From Dehalococcoidia bacterium (GTDB lineage: Bacteria; Chloroflexota; Dehalococcoidia; Lucifugimonadales; UBA3495), in contig CBDBHA010000002.1 of NCBI GenBank assembly GCA_965205495.1, positions 1,452,738 through 1,516,737 of the forward strand: a DNA stretch of 64,000 bases. Reading direction: 5' to 3'. Below the pieces are notes generated by a model. That model had not been told where the DNA came from. It saw only the letters and a list, made by a program, of their open reading frames with translations, and did not search any database. The translations under genes were made by a program, and so were the position numbers. Positions 6,249-54,105 of this stretch are shown in pieces; position 1 is the first letter of the stretch; every line of letters begins with the position of its first letter.

Positions 6249-6325
6249 TGGTAGCGCGTGCGGGATTCGAACCCGCGATCTCCGCCTTGAGAGGGCGGTG
6301 TCCTGGGCCGCTAGACGAACGCGCC
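6249..6325 (-). tRNA. tRNA-Glu (anticodon CUC), CCA encoded
   Basis: The reverse complement reads GGCGCGTTCGTCTAGCGGCCCAGGACACCGCCCTCTCAAGGCGGAGATCGCGGGTTCGAATCCCGCACGCGCTACCA. Cloverleaf folded by eye: T arm GCGGG/CCCGC with a TTCGAAT loop, and anticodon loop CTCTCAA. Confidence 0.9.
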
Positions 6326-12240: not shown

Positions 12241-13926
12241 TTAGAGGGACCAATCGTCGGGGAGTTCGGGGGTACGCATGGGCTTAATCATGACCTCGAC
12301 CAGGGCGGCCTGGCCGTCCTGGGTGGCCTGGATGGCGCGTTGGAAGGTGGGGACCAGTTCCTGGGGTTCCGACACCCGCTCGGAGTAGGCGCCGAGGCCC
12401 TGGGCCACCTGGCTGAAGTTGCCGCCCAGTTGGGCGACGGTGGGGGGAGTGCCGCCGGGGCGGTCCATGCCCATCATGCCGCCTCCGATGCCGCCGTTGT
12501 TGATAACGACGGTAAGGGTGGGGAGGCCCATGCGGACGGCGGTTTCGATTTCCATGCCGGTCATGCCGAAAGAGGCGTCGCCAAGAAGGTGAACCACAAG
12601 CTTGTCGGGATTGGCCAGTTTGGCTCCGATGGCCGCGCCCAGAGACCAACCCATGGGGGCCATCCCGCCCATTGCGACGAAGCTGTGGGGTGTTTTGGAG
12701 AGCCAGAAGGGAGTTATGTAACCCCGGCTGCCGCCGGCATCATGGAGGGCGACGGTACGGTCGAGGTCCACGGTGCGCATGAGGTCGTAGACCACCCGGT
12801 AGCCGTTGATCGGCGTGGAGTCGTCGGTAAAGACGGGCATCCACTCACCCAGCCACTTGTCCTTGGCCCGGGCGATTTCGTCAACGATTTCCTCTTTAAT
12901 ACCGCCGGCGTTGGGGCCCAGTCGGTCGCGGACGGCGTCGATGAGGTCATGGAGAGCCAGCTTGGCATCGGCCAGGATAGGGACATCGGCCTGGTACTGC
13001 TTGTTGAGGTCTTTTTCGTCGGCGTTGACGTGGATGAGCTTAACGCCTTCAGGGATGGGGCGACCGTCGGTGCCGTTGGGGAGGCGGAAGGAATTGCCCA
13101 CGGCGAGGACGGCGTCGGCGTGGCGGTTGATTTGGATGGCCGGTCCCGAAGCATAGCGGCTCCGGGGGTAGACACCGCCACCGAGGGAGAGGGGATGGTC
13201 TTCGGGGAAGATGCTCTTGCCCAGGAGGGTGGTGGCCACCGGCATGGAGAGCAGCTCGGCCAGCTCTCGGACCTCGTCGGCGGCCCCGGCGGACATGGCG
13301 CCGCCGCCAACGTTGAGGATGGGATATTGGGCCTGGACCAGGATGTCGGCGGCGCGCTCGATGTCGCGGGGATCGGGAGCGGCTTTGCGGCCTTCCCCGA
13401 CGGGTTGGTAGTTAAACACGGCGTCATCGGCTTCGGCGTTGAGCACATCCTGGGGCATTTCAAGGACCACCGGGCCAGGGGAGCCGGAACGGAGGGCGGT
13501 GAAGGCGCGGCGGATGATGCCTGGGATTTCGTCGGGGCGGGTGAAGGTCCCCTTCCACTTAACGAGGGTATCGAAGATGCTGGAGGAGACCTCTTGCTGG
13601 TACTCCTTGCCCAGGTTTCGGAGGGGGTGTTGGCCCATTAGAAGGAGGACCGGAACGTTATCGGCGAAGCAACTAGCAATGCCGGTAAGGGTATTGGTAG
13701 CGCCGGGGCCGGTGCCGGTCATGGCCACACCGACTTGGCCGGTGGCGCGGGAATAGCCGTCGGCGACCTCGACGCCGAGCCTTTCGTGGCGGGTGGCGAA
13801 GGCCGTGATGGTGGGGGATTCCCGAAGGGCGGGCCAGAGGGGAGCGAGGCCTCCTCCGGAGAAACCGGTGATGTACCTTATCCCTTCTTGTTCCAGAGCC
13901 CGGATTACCGCATCGCCGCCACGCAT
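12241..13926 (-). CDS. ThDP-dependent enzyme, acetolactate synthase large-subunit-like (paralog 1)
   Basis: Start refined to MRGGDAV (ATG 13926, AAGGTG 5 nt upstream). Three-domain ALS/POX architecture, with the ThDP motif GDASFGMTGMEIETAV...NNGG. Confidence 0.85.
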   Translation of the reverse strand: MRGGDAVIRALEQEGIRYITGFSGGGLAPLWPALRESPTITAFATRHERLGVEVADGYSRATGQVGVAMTGTGPGATNTLTGIASCFADNVPVLLLMGQHPLRNLGKEYQQEVSSSIFDTLVKWKGTFTRPDEIPGIIRRAFTALRSGSPGPVVLEMPQDVLNAEADDAVFNYQPVGEGRKAAPDPRDIERAADILVQAQYPILNVGGGAMSAGAADEVRELAELLSMPVATTLLGKSIFPEDHPLSLGGGVYPRSRYASGPAIQINRHADAVLAVGNSFRLPNGTDGRPIPEGVKLIHVNADEKDLNKQYQADVPILADAKLALHDLIDAVRDRLGPNAGGIKEEIVDEIARAKDKWLGEWMPVFTDDSTPINGYRVVYDLMRTVDLDRTVALHDAGGSRGYITPFWLSKTPHSFVAMGGMAPMGWSLGAAIGAKLANPDKLVVHLLGDASFGMTGMEIETAVRMGLPTLTVVINNGGIGGGMMGMDRPGGTPPTVAQLGGNFSQVAQGLGAYSERVSEPQELVPTFQRAIQATQDGQAALVEVMIKPMRTPELPDDWSL

Positions 13927-14206
13927 AGCAACACCTTTATGGGCGGAAGAGGTTGAGACATTGGTCAGGAAACCCTCCGCCTGATTAGATTCCAGGGACG
14001 GGGAACTTGCTGCCAGATATGGGGAGATTCTAAAACAGGGGGCCCGGCGGGTCAATGCCGGGTTTTCCGGTTAGGCGGCTGATTGGGTTGGAAATGATGG
14101 CCCTGCTGGTCTGGTTTAGTTGAGACGGGCGTTTTTGATTGCCGGAGCCGTCTTGCGGAGAATCGGGACTTCGGGGCAGTGGAAAGGGCGCGGGTATGAA
14201 ATCTAG

Positions 14207-14265
14207 GAATTTTTAGCACTGGGACATTTTAGGACATCCTCGGACAATTGGGTTTGGGGACAAGG
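14207..14265 (+). repeat. Phased GGGAC/GGACA triplet element, copy A1
   Basis: The sequence is gaatttttagcactGGGACattttaGGACAtcctcGGACAattgg. The pentamer recurs at 10-11 bp spacing. Homologous copies are at 46825, 53064 and 53511. Confidence 0.6.
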
Positions 14266-14579: not shown

Positions 14580-14894
14580 TCAAAACGCGGGGTCCACTGG
14601 GGGGAAGGACAGGAGACTTCTCAAGAGGCGTTGGACGGCGGGGACTTCCATGTCCGCCAGGCAGCGGTTCAAGTAGCGGAAGACCGCGGTGAAGCTGGGC
14701 AAGGGGAAACCGGCCTTGACGACTTTTGGCATGAAGGCGGGGAGGGGTTTTTGTTTGATTTGAGCGCAGGTCCACTCGCCGCAAAAGGCGTGGGCCTGGC
14801 GGTCCAGGTTGACCTGGACGAGGGCCTGGGCCATTTTGCGCTCCAAGGAGCAGATTCGGGACTTTATGGAACGGATTTGGGAAGAAAGGTTCAT
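14580..14894 (-). CDS. Hypothetical 104-aa protein, paralog of 53126..53446
   Basis: It aligns by eye at about one-third identity with the 106-aa ORF at 53126..53446. The shared core is C-x-EW-x2-AQ-x3-KPLP ... F-x2-KV-x3-GF-x3-SFT-x2-F-x-YL-x2-C. Both sit in the same position relative to a conserved ~50-nt element. No family recognised. Confidence 0.55.
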   Translation of the reverse strand: MNLSSQIRSIKSRICSLERKMAQALVQVNLDRQAHAFCGEWTCAQIKQKPLPAFMPKVVKAGFPLPSFTAVFRYLNRCLADMEVPAVQRLLRSLLSFPPVDPAF

Positions 14895-15030: not shown

Positions 15031-15099
15031 ATGTCCAGTAATAGTTATGGTAGAGAGTCGTCACCGGAACTGGCAAGGGGGAAGTGTCAGTGATTTTTT
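15031..15099. repeat. Conserved ~50-nt element, copy A (core 15045..15093)
   Basis: The core is ttatggtagagagtcgtcaccggaactggcaagggggaagtgtcagtga. By eye it matches copy B at 47/49 and copy C at 45/49. On the minus strand it reads TTGCCA-18-TACCAT. Confidence 0.8.
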
Positions 15100-44281: not shown

Positions 44282-44378
44282 GGGAGTGGATGGGGCCCGG
44301 TGGCTCTTGCGGACTTCAAATCCGTTATGCCTCGTGACGAGCGGGGTAGGTGGGTTCGACTCCCTCGCACTCCCGCCA
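44282..44378 (+). tRNA. selC: tRNA-Sec-like (anticodon UCA), 97 nt, CCA encoded
   Basis: The sequence is GGGAGTGGATGGGGCCCGGTGGCTCTTGCGGACTTCAAATCCGTTATGCCTCGTGACGAGCGGGGTAGGTGGGTTCGACTCCCTCGCACTCCCGCCA. It has a 6-bp D stem with a CGGT loop, anticodon loop CTTCAAA, a long variable arm, a GGTTCGACTCC T loop, and discriminator G + CCA. The layout parallels E. coli selC as I recall it. By eye, the 8th acceptor pair and one T-stem pair are mismatched. Confidence 0.75.
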
Positions 44379-47039: not shown

Positions 47040-47108
47040 ATGTCCGGTAGATATTATGGTAGAGAGTCGTCACCGGAACTGGCAAGGGGGAAATGTCAGT
47101 GGTTTTCT
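47040..47108. repeat. Conserved ~50-nt element, copy B (core 47054..47102)
   Basis: The core is ttatggtagagagtcgtcaccggaactggcaagggggaaatgtcagtgg, matching copy A at 47/49 by eye. No intact small ORF accompanies this copy. Confidence 0.8.
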
Positions 47109-51188: not shown

Positions 51189-51218
51189 GGGGCGGGCCGA
51201 TGGGTCCGCCCCTTTTTG
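51189..51218 (+). terminator. Intrinsic terminator after the HEPN gene
   Basis: GGGGCGG-gccgatgggt-CCGCCCC-TTTTTG. Confidence 0.75.
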
Positions 51219-51229
51219 TTGGGGCGGGG

Positions 51230-51685
51230 TTAGAGCATTCCTTCCATGGCGAGACGGCGAATTTCCTGGTGGCGGTAGGCGAAGATTTTCTTGAGGTCGG
51301 GTTCCACCAGGAATTTCTTGACAAATGGGCCGCCGTGGACGGCGTATTCGATGTAGTCTTCAACCAGGGTGCCACCGTTGCGTTCGTGGAAGGTATGGCG
51401 GTGGCGCCAGAGGCGGTAGGGACCGCGGAGCTGTTCATCGACGAACAAGGTTGGGGGCTGCCAGAGGGTTATTTGGCTGCGCCAGCGGACCGGGATGCAG
51501 TGGAGTTTCAGTTTGTAGTCGATGGTTGTTCCCTGGCGCATGTCGAGGGGTGGGGGAGTCACCACGCGGAAGTTAAGGAAGGGCGGAGTTACGCGTTCCA
51601 GGTTAAAGGGGTCGGCGAAAAAGGGAAAGACCTGGTCCGGGGGGACGGGGAACCATTGTTCGTCTTCGAAAAGCCAGGTCTTCAA
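51230..51685 (-). CDS. SRPBCC-superfamily (cyclase/dehydrase-like) protein
   Basis: 151 aa. The pattern FPFFADPFNLERVTPP ... LWRHRHTF matches the SRPBCC family I recall as COG4276-type. Confidence 0.7.
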   Translation of the reverse strand: MKTWLFEDEQWFPVPPDQVFPFFADPFNLERVTPPFLNFRVVTPPPLDMRQGTTIDYKLKLHCIPVRWRSQITLWQPPTLFVDEQLRGPYRLWRHRHTFHERNGGTLVEDYIEYAVHGGPFVKKFLVEPDLKKIFAYRHQEIRRLAMEGML

Positions 51686-51700
51686 GGGCGGGGCTCCAAG

Positions 51701-52852
51701 TTACGGGTGGCCGGTCAGGTTGACGGGGGAGTTGAGGAGGCGAACGGTGCGCTCGGCGGCGCTTTCCAGCAGATCAGCGGTACGGGCGAGGCTGCGTTCG
51801 AAGCTCATGGGACGGTCGGCGATACAGACCAGGCCAGCGATGTCGTGGTCGTAGAGTTTTCCGGAACCGGGACCGATACTGCCGGCGAGGATGATGGTGG
51901 GGACTCCCTGAGCCCGAGCGCGGCGGGCGACACCCACCGGGGCTTTGTCGTAGATGGTGGACTCGTCGGCGCGGCCTTCGCCGGTGATGACCAGGTCAGC
52001 GCCCTGGAGATGGCGGTCGAATTCGAGGACCTGGCAGACCATATCGATACCGGAGCGGAGGTCGGCGCCGGTGAAGGCGATGAGGCCAGCGCCGAGGCCG
52101 CCGGCGGCTCCGGCGCCCTGGCGGTCGAGGACGTCGACGCCCAAGTCTTGTTTAACGACGCGGGCGAAGTTGGCGAGGGCTGCATCGAGTTCGGCGACGA
52201 CGCGGGGGGAGGCGCCTTTTTGGGGGCCGAAGACGGCGGATGCGCCGGTGGGGCCGCAGAGGGGGTTGGTGACGTCGGTGGCGCCGATGATGGTGGCCGT
52301 AGCCAGGTTGGGGTCGATGGTGGAGCGGTCGATGGCCGCGAGGCGGGAGAGGGCCGCGCCGCCGGGGGGGAGGGGTTGGCTGGCCTGGTCGAGGAAACGG
52401 ACACCGAGGGCGGCGGCCATGCCGGAGCCGGCGTCGTTGGTGGCGCTGCCGCCGAGGCCGACAATGATGCGGGTGTAGCCGAGGTCGAGGGCTTCCTTGA
52501 TGATTTCGCCGGTGCCGCGGGTGGTGGCGGCGCGGGGATTGCGGCGTTTGGGAGGGACGAGGGCGAGGCCGGAGGCGCGGGCCATTTCGACCACGGCGGT
52601 TATGCCGTCGCCCATGATGCCCCAGAAGGCTTCGACGGCCTGACCCAGGGGGCCGGTAACGATGCTGCGGCGCATTTCGCCGCCGGTGGTGTTGACCAAG
52701 GCTTCCAGGGTGCCGTCGCCGCCGTCGGCCACTGGAACGAGGACGGTTTCAGCGTTGGGGGCAGCGCAGAGGACGCCGCGTTGGATGGCCTCGGCGGCTT
52801 GCAGGGCGTGGAGGCTGCCTTTGAAACTCTGGGGGGCGATTACGATTTTCAT
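51701..52852 (-). CDS. Glycerate kinase
   Basis: MKIVIAPQSFKGSL N-terminus, PVADGGDGT, and a C-terminal ITGEGR motif. Confidence 0.9.
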   Translation of the reverse strand: MKIVIAPQSFKGSLHALQAAEAIQRGVLCAAPNAETVLVPVADGGDGTLEALVNTTGGEMRRSIVTGPLGQAVEAFWGIMGDGITAVVEMARASGLALVPPKRRNPRAATTRGTGEIIKEALDLGYTRIIVGLGGSATNDAGSGMAAALGVRFLDQASQPLPPGGAALSRLAAIDRSTIDPNLATATIIGATDVTNPLCGPTGASAVFGPQKGASPRVVAELDAALANFARVVKQDLGVDVLDRQGAGAAGGLGAGLIAFTGADLRSGIDMVCQVLEFDRHLQGADLVITGEGRADESTIYDKAPVGVARRARAQGVPTIILAGSIGPGSGKLYDHDIAGLVCIADRPMSFERSLARTADLLESAAERTVRLLNSPVNLTGHP

Positions 52853-52895
52853 GGCTCCAGAAGGTGATTATACACCGGAGGATTGGGTGGGGGTT

Positions 52896-53052
52896 TATGC
52901 GACCGTCCGTTGGCCTTTCAACGGAGTTCAGGATGATCCTTCAACAGGCTCAGGACGAGCGGACCTGGGTGTTTAGTGCGGGGGACCGTCCGTTGGCCCT
53001 TCGACAAGCTCAGGACGATCCTTCGACGGGGCTCAGGACGAGCGGACTGAGG
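52896..53052 (+). repeat. Hairpin repeat family 1, array of about 3 units
   Basis: Repeated gaccGTCCGTTggcc(c/t)ttc(g/a)ac(g/a)...gctcaggacga(a/g)cGGAC units. Each unit contains a GTCCGTT...AACGGAC-type inverted repeat. Confidence 0.75.
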
Positions 53053-53063
53053 GTAGGGTGCGG

Positions 53064-53125
53064 GAGATTTTTAAGGTGTTGGGACTTTTGGGGACATCCT
53101 GGGACATTGTTCGGGTTGGGTGGGG
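53064..53125 (+). repeat. Phased GGGAC triplet element, copy C1
   Basis: The sequence is gagatttttaaggtgttGGGACttttgGGGACatcctGGGACattgttcgg, with exact 10-bp phasing. It abuts the stop of small ORF C. Confidence 0.65.
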
Positions 53126-53446
53126 TTAGGAGAAACAGGGGGATTGACGCCAGGGCAGTAGGGCGTCTAGGAGCAACTTGTGGTCGGGCTCCTTTTTGCG
53201 GCGGCGGCAGTAGTCCAGGTAGCCGAAGGCGCCGGTGAAGGAGAGGTAGTGGAAGCCGGAGTCGGCCACCTTTCGGATGAAGTTGTGGGGGTCGGGGAGG
53301 GGCTTGTTCTGAGATTGGGCGTCGGCCCATTCCTCGCAGAGTTGGTTTGCCTCACGGCCGACGAAATACTCGGTGTAGGGGCGGTGGAGTTTGCGTTTCA
53401 GGGCGCGGACTCGGTTGGCTAGGCTGGAGAGACTGGTTGATCCCAT
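53126..53446 (-). CDS. Hypothetical 106-aa protein, paralog of 14580..14894
   Basis: GGAGGAA lies about 12 nt before the ATG. It is about one-third identical by eye to the 104-aa ORF at 14580..14894 and has the same position and orientation relative to the conserved ~50-nt element. Confidence 0.6.
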   Translation of the reverse strand: MGSTSLSSLANRVRALKRKLHRPYTEYFVGREANQLCEEWADAQSQNKPLPDPHNFIRKVADSGFHYLSFTGAFGYLDYCRRRKKEPDHKLLLDALLPWRQSPCFS

Positions 53447-53510
53447 GATTTTGGAAGTTCCTCCGGGTTTTGGATTAAGGTTTTATAGGGGTTTGGATGG
53501 ATGGGACAGG

Positions 53511-53575
53511 TGATATTTGTTTGATGCTGGGACATTTTGGGGCTTTTTAGGACATGGGGTTGGTTGTCTGGGCCA
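53511..53575 (+). repeat. Phased GGGAC element, copy C2
   Basis: The sequence is tgatatttgtttgatgctGGGACattttGGGGCtttttaGGACAtgggg. It lies between small ORF C and conserved element C. Confidence 0.55.
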
Positions 53576-53610
53576 GTGGGTTCGGGGGTTGGAATTTTGG
53601 GGGCTGGGGT

Positions 53611-53687
53611 AAGGTCTATCTACAGTTATGTTAGAGAGTTGTCACCGGAAGTGGCAAGGGGTAAGTGTCAGTGATTTGGGGGGTGGT
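53611..53687. repeat. Conserved ~50-nt element, copy C (core 53626..53674)
   Basis: The core is ttatgttagagagttgtcaccggaagtggcaaggggtaagtgtcagtga, matching copy A at 45/49 by eye. On the minus strand it reads TTGCCA-18-TAACAT. Confidence 0.8.
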
Positions 53688-53703
53688 TCAGCGGGCTCAA
53701 CAC

Positions 53704-53900
53704 GAGCAGGGGGTGTTTTGTGCGACCGTCCGTTGGCCCTTCGACGGGGCTCAGGACGAACGGACTGGGTGTAGCCGGGGTTGGGGGTGGTTCGGCGGGG
53801 CTCAACACGATACTTCGACATGCTCAGGACGAGCAGGGGGTGTTTTATGCGACCGTCCGTTGGCCCTTCGACGGGGCTCAGGACGAACGGACTGGGTGTT
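53704..53900 (+). repeat. Hairpin repeat family 1, array of about 3 units
   Basis: Two near-identical units (gcgaccgtccgttggcccttcgacggggctcaggacgaacggactgggtgt) flank a diverged unit. Confidence 0.8.
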
Positions 53901-54105
53901 AGGACTGGTTCGACGGGCTTATCGTGAATCGGGGTGGGACTCACCACGAACGGGGGGTTAGACCGCGGATCAGGTTTTCATGCCCAAGAATACGATAATC
54001 GAAAGGGCCTGAGCGCGTTGGGGGTTATGTGTCCATTTTGGTTGGGCTCTGATAAAATCGGGCCCAGTTTAGGCTGGTAGTCCGGAGCCGCAGGGAGGAA
54101 TCACC

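Follow-up and report, generated by a model that had tools for sequence, protein, structure and literature searches.

The stretch of DNA analysed here (64,000 nucleotides, hereafter the window) comes from the genome of a Dehalococcoidia bacterium of the phylum Chloroflexota (GenBank assembly GCA_965205495.1, contig CBDBHA010000002.1, positions 1,452,738 to 1,516,737) and holds two repeat-rich intergenic islands, each with one small open reading frame (ORF) coding for a basic protein of about 105 residues. These ORFs are genuine genes of an unnamed, uncharacterised family. In the explanation that we favour, and in which we place about as much belief as doubt, they are parts of a lineage-restricted, mobile, promoter-carrying regulatory cassette of two genes which, along with its deletion derivatives, has spread through 5' intergenic regions. 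We infer that the first gene of this cassette encodes a helix-turn-helix (HTH) protein that would bind phased repeats and control the cassette in cis and in trans, that the small protein would pair with it as partner or effector, that an outward promoter with almost no terminator behind it would let transcripts run on into the co-oriented host gene, and that the units would be actively mobile.

The initial annotation of the window presented the two ORFs as paralogues that align end to end with a single two-residue gap and about one third of identical residues by eye. BLASTP confirms the homology and the degree of identity (34 of 95 residues, 36%, E 2e-19), and the similarity thus survives a statistical alignment, but the gap spans three residues. 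The copy number had been understated, as tblastn retrieves 26 paralogues from the source genome (3.82 Mb, 2 contigs, 60.6% G+C). These form a subfamily A of 2 copies (the ORF of island 1 and an internally deleted copy of 71 residues), a subfamily B of 4 and a subfamily C of 20, which includes the ORF of island 2. All C-type frames are intact and the copies are 78-90% identical at the DNA level; over the whole family 25 of the 26 copies have a full-length intact frame, the deleted A-type copy being the sole exception. Among the 20 C-type copies the mean rates of nonsynonymous (dN) and synonymous (dS) substitution are 0.103 and 0.326, a ratio of 0.32 that is to be taken as an indication of constraint rather than as a test, since the pairs are non-independent. 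The small ORFs are under purifying selection. The proposal that both are real coding sequences is therefore borne out by this ratio, which is not close to 1, by homologues well beyond the two copies and by a confident structure prediction described below.

A profile search of 1.84 billion cluster representatives yielded 303 clusters at E<=1e-3 and 134 at E<=1e-10, while a word-indexed search of 5.8 billion sequences returned 41 proteins, none of them named and none with a Pfam domain, in keeping with the earlier statement that the family is not a recognised one. Relatives of the A-type ORF at 63-70% identity occur in other assemblies, and the titled records with relatives read "MAG: Dehalococcoidia bacterium" (MAG, metagenome-assembled genome). 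The family was detected in 16 of 41 sampled genomes of the same order, including 7 of 7 congeners of the source genome with 1-7 matches apiece and one genome of another genus with 14, and no match at E<=1e-5 was obtained in any of 400 other genomes drawn evenly from the phylum. It is thus found only in one order of Dehalococcoidia-type Chloroflexota, and its copy number spans 1-26 inside one genus.

Each ORF lies 150-185 nt downstream of a conserved 50-nt element that reads TTGCCA-18-TA(A/C)CAT, as had been annotated. The element agrees with the sigma-70 consensus at 9 of 12 positions, and that of the A-type unit is, like its C-type counterpart, the sole sigma-70-like match in its island; from its sequence we consider it a putative promoter. 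A codon-usage scorer calls nothing but the two ORFs in the islands, which upholds their description as the sole coding candidates there. The C-type unit consists, in order, of a short C-run and an A-run, the element, a C/A-rich leader, a degenerate triplet of phased repeats, a Shine-Dalgarno (SD) sequence, the ORF, a clean triplet and an A-rich motif. The bracketing of both ORFs by phased triplets, also part of the initial annotation, holds on the 3' side of each ORF, where the triplet is clean, whereas the upstream triplet is degenerate in island 2 and barely recognisable in island 1. Hairpin repeats with more than 100 copies in the genome fill the rest of both islands and border the C-type unit on either side in an alignment of the 20 copies with their flanks; they are a family separate from the cassette. 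Around the C-type unit they occupy window positions 52880-53060 and 53680-53930, where translation in one frame gives recurrent peptide-like strings of spurious ORFs.

In the source genome, the element occurs 38 times when up to 10 mismatches to its commonest form are allowed. The element is followed by the small ORF only in 20 units, both window copies included, by an HTH ORF and then the small ORF in 3, by an HTH ORF only in 1, and by neither gene in 14. With 3 further B-type units that carry a diverged element, the genome holds at least 41 units, which measure 0.6-1 kb when complete and about 0.19 kb (about 190 bp) when gene-less. In the two-gene units that were read (B-type, C-type and some foreign loci) the ATG of the small ORF overlaps the stop codon of the HTH ORF as ATGA. 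In all 11 foreign loci (the best locus of each of 11 other genomes) the small ORF follows an HTH gene or what is left of one; the two-gene form is therefore ancestral, and both window copies are deletion derivatives that have lost the HTH gene. The suggestion of a repeat-plus-protein module accordingly stands as far as the tie of the ORF to element and triplets is concerned, but falls short in that the full form also encodes an upstream HTH protein. The gene-less units look like products of recombination between the two triplets. An RNA element was considered and rejected: the C-type leader appears unstructured (folding z 0.30 versus shuffles), no Rfam match at gathering score was found in the window beyond two tRNAs, and none at E<=0.1 inside the units of three loci (L001, L007 and L059).

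A strict search for three phased GGAC repeats finds exactly two sites in the window, starting at 14222 and 53082, for a mean of 0.32 in shuffled sequence. The clean triplet of island 1 is 335 nt away from the stop codon of the ORF, on its 3' side, and in C-type units the second triplet, after the small ORF, is in direct orientation. Every HTH-bearing unit contains three repeats with a 10-nt period and the pattern ATG-nnn-CA-nA, with A-tracts between them; these repeats come after an SD-like GAGG and overlap the start of the HTH gene, which is the second ATG. The repeat core of 4-6 nt is the same within a unit, differs among lineages, and varies with the residues that immediately precede the conserved TLxRW in the recognition helix, which is intact in 10 of the 11 foreign best loci. 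Thus helix RST goes with core GGGACA (3 genomes), RRT with GGCnCA (7 units), RAT with GCGACA, RNT with AGCA, and PKT with GTCC(C)A, the last being the C-type combination of the source genome. Since core and helix vary together, the triplets are probably binding sites of the HTH protein, which is a more likely triplet binder than the small protein.

Two side observations concern the same region. In L037, L031, L052 and other loci the first of the three phased ATGs has an SD-like GAGG in front of it, and at least in L037 this ATG starts a frame of 7 codons that runs over the true HTH start, 10 nt further on; it could be a small upstream ORF or a device for start-site choice. In another Dehalococcoidia MAG (L040:3700-3990) a degenerate-triplet block, about 95 nt long, occurs three times in tandem ahead of the small ORF.

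Comparison with the seven congeners bears on how the window units arrived. At island 2, the glycerate kinase gene and an M20 peptidase gene are adjacent in 7 of 7 congeners and have no unit between them; the intergenic gap is 282-482 bp there versus 1253 bp in the source genome. At island 1, a gene for a thiamine pyrophosphate (TPP) enzyme lies within 1.5 kb of a permease gene in 6 of 7 congeners, and ORF and element are absent at the site in all 7. As the congener sites lack the unit, both window units were gained in the source lineage, or else lost in all others.

The units are also strongly oriented. A crude gene caller based on codon usage put 35 of 38 units in the same direction as the next host gene, and as one exception proved to be a miscalled glycerate kinase gene the count rises to 36 of 38; Pfam domains lie on the called strand in 34 of 36 downstream genes. 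A co-oriented downstream gene was likewise present at 18 of 19 loci in three other MAGs. The upstream gene is co-oriented in 12 of 38 cases only, so most units are placed between two divergent genes and not one is usefully located in a convergent gap. Terminator-like sites occur at 0.23 per kb between unit and host gene, with none in 28 of 35 regions, and at 0.91 per kb in convergent intergenic regions; with almost no terminator after the promoter, transcripts probably run into the host gene. The genes thus placed include leuS, ksgA, selA, a proB-like gene, serA, gcvT and thiE, together with many genes for coenzyme A-transferases, hydratases, monooxygenases and TPP enzymes. This orientation bias fits units that supply a promoter to host genes.

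The miscalled gene deserves a remark of its own. A 555-aa frame at window positions 51200-52867 (+) runs antisense to the gene for glycerate kinase and was given the higher score by the codon scorer, although the minus-strand glycerate kinase is the real gene according to Pfam and synteny. Antisense frames of this kind in high-G+C DNA can mislead gene callers, and standard callers may miss or mis-call the small ORFs.

The small protein was modelled with AlphaFold2 (AF2) from a 61-sequence alignment, with a predicted local distance difference test score (pLDDT) of 92.7 and a predicted template modelling score (pTM) of 0.77. The model is all-helical and consists of a 40-residue N-terminal helix (residues 6-45) rich in Arg and Lys, followed by three short helices. 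Near-invariant positions among the 61 aligned sequences are a Leu, a Trp, an Ala, three Pro, a Gly, a Tyr-Leu pair and one Cys; a HEPN-type or zinc-type motif was rejected, as the same alignment contains no conserved R-x4-6-H and no Cys/His cluster. The small protein had no match in Pfam, PHROGs, NCBIfam or PADLOC, no Foldseek match at E<=1e-3 against PDB and BFVD, and no usable match in the ESM Atlas. The best hit of an exhaustive VIA search was a designed helical bundle (Z 6.6), which is uninformative for a helical protein, and homologues of 177-285 residues contain no Pfam domain.

The HTH gene is present in 7 copies in the source genome and its product has 135-145 residues. In its AF2 monomer model (pLDDT 79, pTM 0.48) residues 21-54 form a three-helix HTH, and two long helices span 57-93 and 98-140. 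Structurally, this model comes closest to 2AO9 (Foldseek E 7e-3, probability 1.00, 23-24% identity; VIA Z 7.0, root-mean-square deviation 2.0 over 58 residues), which PMC7672466 describes as a putative nonameric small terminase. The small terminases of PaP3, Sf6 and NV1 come next in Foldseek, with E 0.5-1.2. At the sequence level, the protein matches PF13022 with 23.5 bits, below the cut-off of 27.9 (E 6e-5), and some public homologues have a precomputed PF13022 match; PHROG 2538 ('terminase small subunit') is weakly matched at E 1.6e-5. Further weak matches are to insertion-sequence HTH domains in NCBIfam (IS481, E 2e-3; IS66 TnpA, E 3.6e-3), to an Xre-type antitoxin (E 0.045) and to AbiEi (E 0.009). 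The likeness to a small terminase is to be read as a resemblance and not as proof of membership. Many of the public HTH homologues (P0204-P0230) are forms of 99-107 residues with the same internal deletions and without the middle helices; since many members share such deletions, decayed HTH genes are common in related genomes.

Several results weigh against the promoter-carrying cassette as we have drawn it. As to mobility, no inverted repeat pair was found in the C-type unit (seed 7, minimum 10 nt), which contains one direct repeat pair 428 nt apart; there are no terminal inverted repeats, no target duplication is visible at the unit ends, no transposase or recombinase lies near the units examined, and copies that are 78-90% identical indicate that the spread is not recent. 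As to regulation, the downstream genes share no common functional theme, and selection against antisense transcription could by itself produce the orientation bias, the units then having no part in regulation. At about 80-110 nt downstream of the putative start site, and over the start codon of the HTH gene, the triplets would be unusually placed for an operator, and the covariation of core and helix was seen among related units, where shared descent explains part of it. No biochemical function is assignable to the small protein from the database and structure searches described above. The public runs containing the locus include one labelled as a sponge metagenome and one metatranscriptome. 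Contigs of the latter cover 53110-53206 and 53264-53332 in short fragments, each of which has 3 differences and could derive from a paralogue or from DNA. Excision was considered for contig joints that skip the ORF (e.g., 53044 to 53525) and rejected: the joints have sides of 20-29 nt and the genome's own ORF-less units are their most likely source.

Table 1. Cassette features and adjoining host genes in the window
Feature	Position	Strand	Remarks
Host gene after A-type unit, co-oriented; TPP-dependent enzyme	12241..14055	-	
Three phased GTCC(C) repeats (GGAC on + strand), 3' of A-type ORF	14222..14245	-	Strict triplet search
Small ORF, subfamily A, 104 aa	14580..14894	-	Open frame; 36% identical to 53126..53446 ORF
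Promoter-like 50-nt element, A-type unit; TTGCCA-18-TACCAT (box 15076-15047)	15044..15093	-	3 mismatches to commonest form
Third element copy; unit without ORF, degenerate triplets only	47053..47102	-	Element search
Host gene after C-type unit, co-oriented; glycerate kinase	51701..52852	-	Pfam Gly_kinase E 4e-144; syntenic in 7/7 congeners
Whole C-type unit, about 620 bp	53065..53683	-	Sharp ends in 20-copy alignment
Phased triplet after the ORF; GTCCC three times with a period of 10-11 nt, separated by A-tracts	53082..53105	-	3' of C-type ORF
Small ORF, subfamily C, 106 aa	53126..53446	-	Open frame; one of 20 C-type copies
Degenerate triplet on 5' side of C-type ORF, after promoter	53527..53556	-	Remnant of start region of lost HTH gene, from comparison with HTH-bearing units
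Promoter-like 50-nt element, C-type unit; TTGCCA-18-TAACAT (box 53657-53628)	53625..53674	-	Sole sigma-70-like match in island

Some neighbours of the units were recorded in passing. A 149-aa ORF with no Pfam match (L059:1522-1971 (-), corresponding to G000 C2:587075-587521) lies 30 nt upstream of a B-type element, is transcribed divergently from it, and was duplicated together with 3 of the 4 B-type units (93-96% identity), one copy having an in-frame TAA. It was rejected as a third cassette gene, being confined to three B-type loci and one distant paralogue 2 kb from another locus, and its co-occurrence with the units probably reflects segmental duplication of the B-type subfamily. A cobalamin riboswitch (98.6 bits, L059:7719-7896 (+)) is found a few kb from a B-type unit. 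The gene after one unit (L081, G000 C1:136647-137108) encodes a 153-aa N-terminal fragment of a DDE_Tnp_1_4 transposase. The two tRNA genes of the window are those for tRNA-Glu, at 6249-6325 (-), and tRNA-Sec (anticodon TCA), at 44282-44378 (+); elsewhere in the genome, selA sits downstream of one unit (L097).

A more far-reaching proposal, which we regard as doubtful, is that the units represent a new class of mobile element without a known transposase or recombinase. A protein like the small terminase subunit (TerS) and the 105-aa protein would then act on phased subterminal repeats, the autonomous two-gene copies would spread the many non-autonomous ones, and each insertion would set an element-controlled promoter in front of a host gene, building a portable regulon over the chromosome.

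It is unlikely, in our judgement, that the cassette is instead a hitcher of the packaging type, in which the HTH protein would truly be related to small terminases, the triplets would be pac- or cos-like sites and the small protein a modulator of a helper's terminase, the units seeding packaging or transduction of adjacent chromosome. Precedents for parts of this scheme exist: the R1-R3 repeats of lambda cosB adjoin the Nu1 gene, much as the three phased repeats lie beside their own HTH gene, and the Ppi and Rpp proteins of phage satellites modulate the helper phage terminase. The match to 2AO9, itself called a putative nonameric TerS in PMC7672466, and the weaker ones to the PaP3, Sf6 and NV1 proteins, PHROG 2538 and PF13022 all lean this way, but every one of them is weak or below the curated cut-off. 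No large terminase or virion gene was detected within 4 kb of the units examined (flanks of L050, L053, L058 and L059), and a search with the Pfam families PF03354 and PF03237 found nothing anywhere in the source genome. Neither protein has a relative among 50,697 phage records searched with tblastn, and a scan of viral contigs with narrow patterns gave no relative either. Packaging would, moreover, explain neither the roughly 40 sites nor their orientation to host gene starts.

No better a prospect, and to be held just as improbable, is a transposon of a new kind, mobilised by the HTH protein with or without the small protein through the subterminal triplets, with host recombination or replication recruited to the task; HTH-less units would be moved in trans, and the small ORF would be retained because it acts in cis. 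The excess of units over HTH genes (at least 41 versus 7), the sharp unit ends and the triplets at both ends of C-type units are in line with it. So are the empty orthologous sites of the congeners, the HTH-less forms that seem to have expanded independently in another MAG and the weak likeness of the HTH protein to IS481 (E 2e-3) and IS66 TnpA (E 4e-3). Against this, a catalytic domain is lacking in both proteins, the triplets are repeated in direct and not inverted orientation, terminal inverted repeats are absent and no target duplication was seen. A dS of about 0.33 among copies speaks against recent transposition, and the B-type copies spread partly with the neighbouring 149-aa gene, in the manner of a segmental duplication.

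We give little credence to the idea that the units are ordinary host paralogues, a regulator family expanded by duplication whose promoter and repeats are simply its regulatory region and which does not move. Purifying selection on diverged copies, the restriction to one lineage and the single copies in congeners would suit such a family. It is difficult to reconcile, though, with the absence of units from orthologous congener sites, with a copy number of 1 to 26 within one genus, with the existence of gene-less units, and with the constantly intergenic position upstream of unrelated genes. Least probable of all is an addiction module of the toxin-antitoxin type, with the HTH protein as autoregulating antitoxin and the small ORF as toxin, or the reverse: two small genes with an ATGA overlap, their own promoter and 5' repeats, the multi-copy state and the weak HTH matches to an Xre-type antitoxin and AbiEi recall such modules, but in 20 units the putative toxin stands without a partner after a consensus-like promoter, as opposed to 7 HTH genes, no Pfam or PADLOC toxin model and no catalytic motif fits the plain helical bundle, and the orientation bias is not predicted.

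Should the promoter-carrying cassette prove right, dozens of host genes (among them leuS, ksgA, selA, serA, gcvT and those for catabolic enzymes) would stand behind one shared, possibly co-regulated inserted promoter, a tangible example of how a gene-carrying repeat can rewire regulation, in hosts that are uncultured symbiont-type Chloroflexota. It would also give a small-terminase-like fold a chromosomal role outside virus packaging. An unnamed family of 303 clusters is in any case now defined and its genomic behaviour testable, and the pairs of repeat core and recognition helix, if binding is confirmed, would amount to a naturally occurring set of orthogonal DNA-binding modules.

No description of such a cassette came up in keyword searches of open-access text. 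The cassette shares features with several known systems. Like TerS with its pac or cos site, the HTH protein combines a predicted N-terminal three-helix HTH and long helices with phased repeats beside its own gene; unlike TerS, its matches fall below family thresholds, it has no large terminase or virion genes as neighbours, and the cassette exists in some 40 chromosomal copies. IS66 elements contain a tnpA-tnpB pair coding for an HTH protein of about 140 residues and a protein of about 115 residues with an ATGA overlap, and the gene sizes, order and overlap of the cassette, along with the weak HTH match to IS66 TnpA, are alike. However, neither window ORF matches PF05717 at E<=10, this domain was not found in the genome, and no TnpC-like DDE gene stands beside any unit, the downstream genes being metabolic or housekeeping ones. 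A miniature inverted-repeat or other non-autonomous element of the DDE type was rejected, with 0 inverted repeat pairs in the C-type unit and no duplication visible at its ends. Type II toxin-antitoxin systems resemble the cassette in their two small overlapping genes, the first predicted to encode a DNA-binding protein, and in the repeats near the promoter, and differ from it in that most cassette units keep the second gene only and no toxin fold or motif is recognisable.

There is also a parallel with promoters that move or are reused. The Correia elements of Neisseria are promoter-carrying intergenic repeats. 'Mobile' or reused promoters are the subject of PMC3575422. Like them, the cassette brings a short, multi-copy, consensus-like and, as judged from its bases, putative promoter upstream of unrelated genes and reads towards them: 38 near-identical elements were found, 36 of which point towards diverse genes. 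Unlike them, it has no terminal inverted repeats, carries one or two genes under selection, measures 0.6-1 kb when complete and about 0.19 kb without genes, and comes with a candidate cognate DNA-binding protein of its own.

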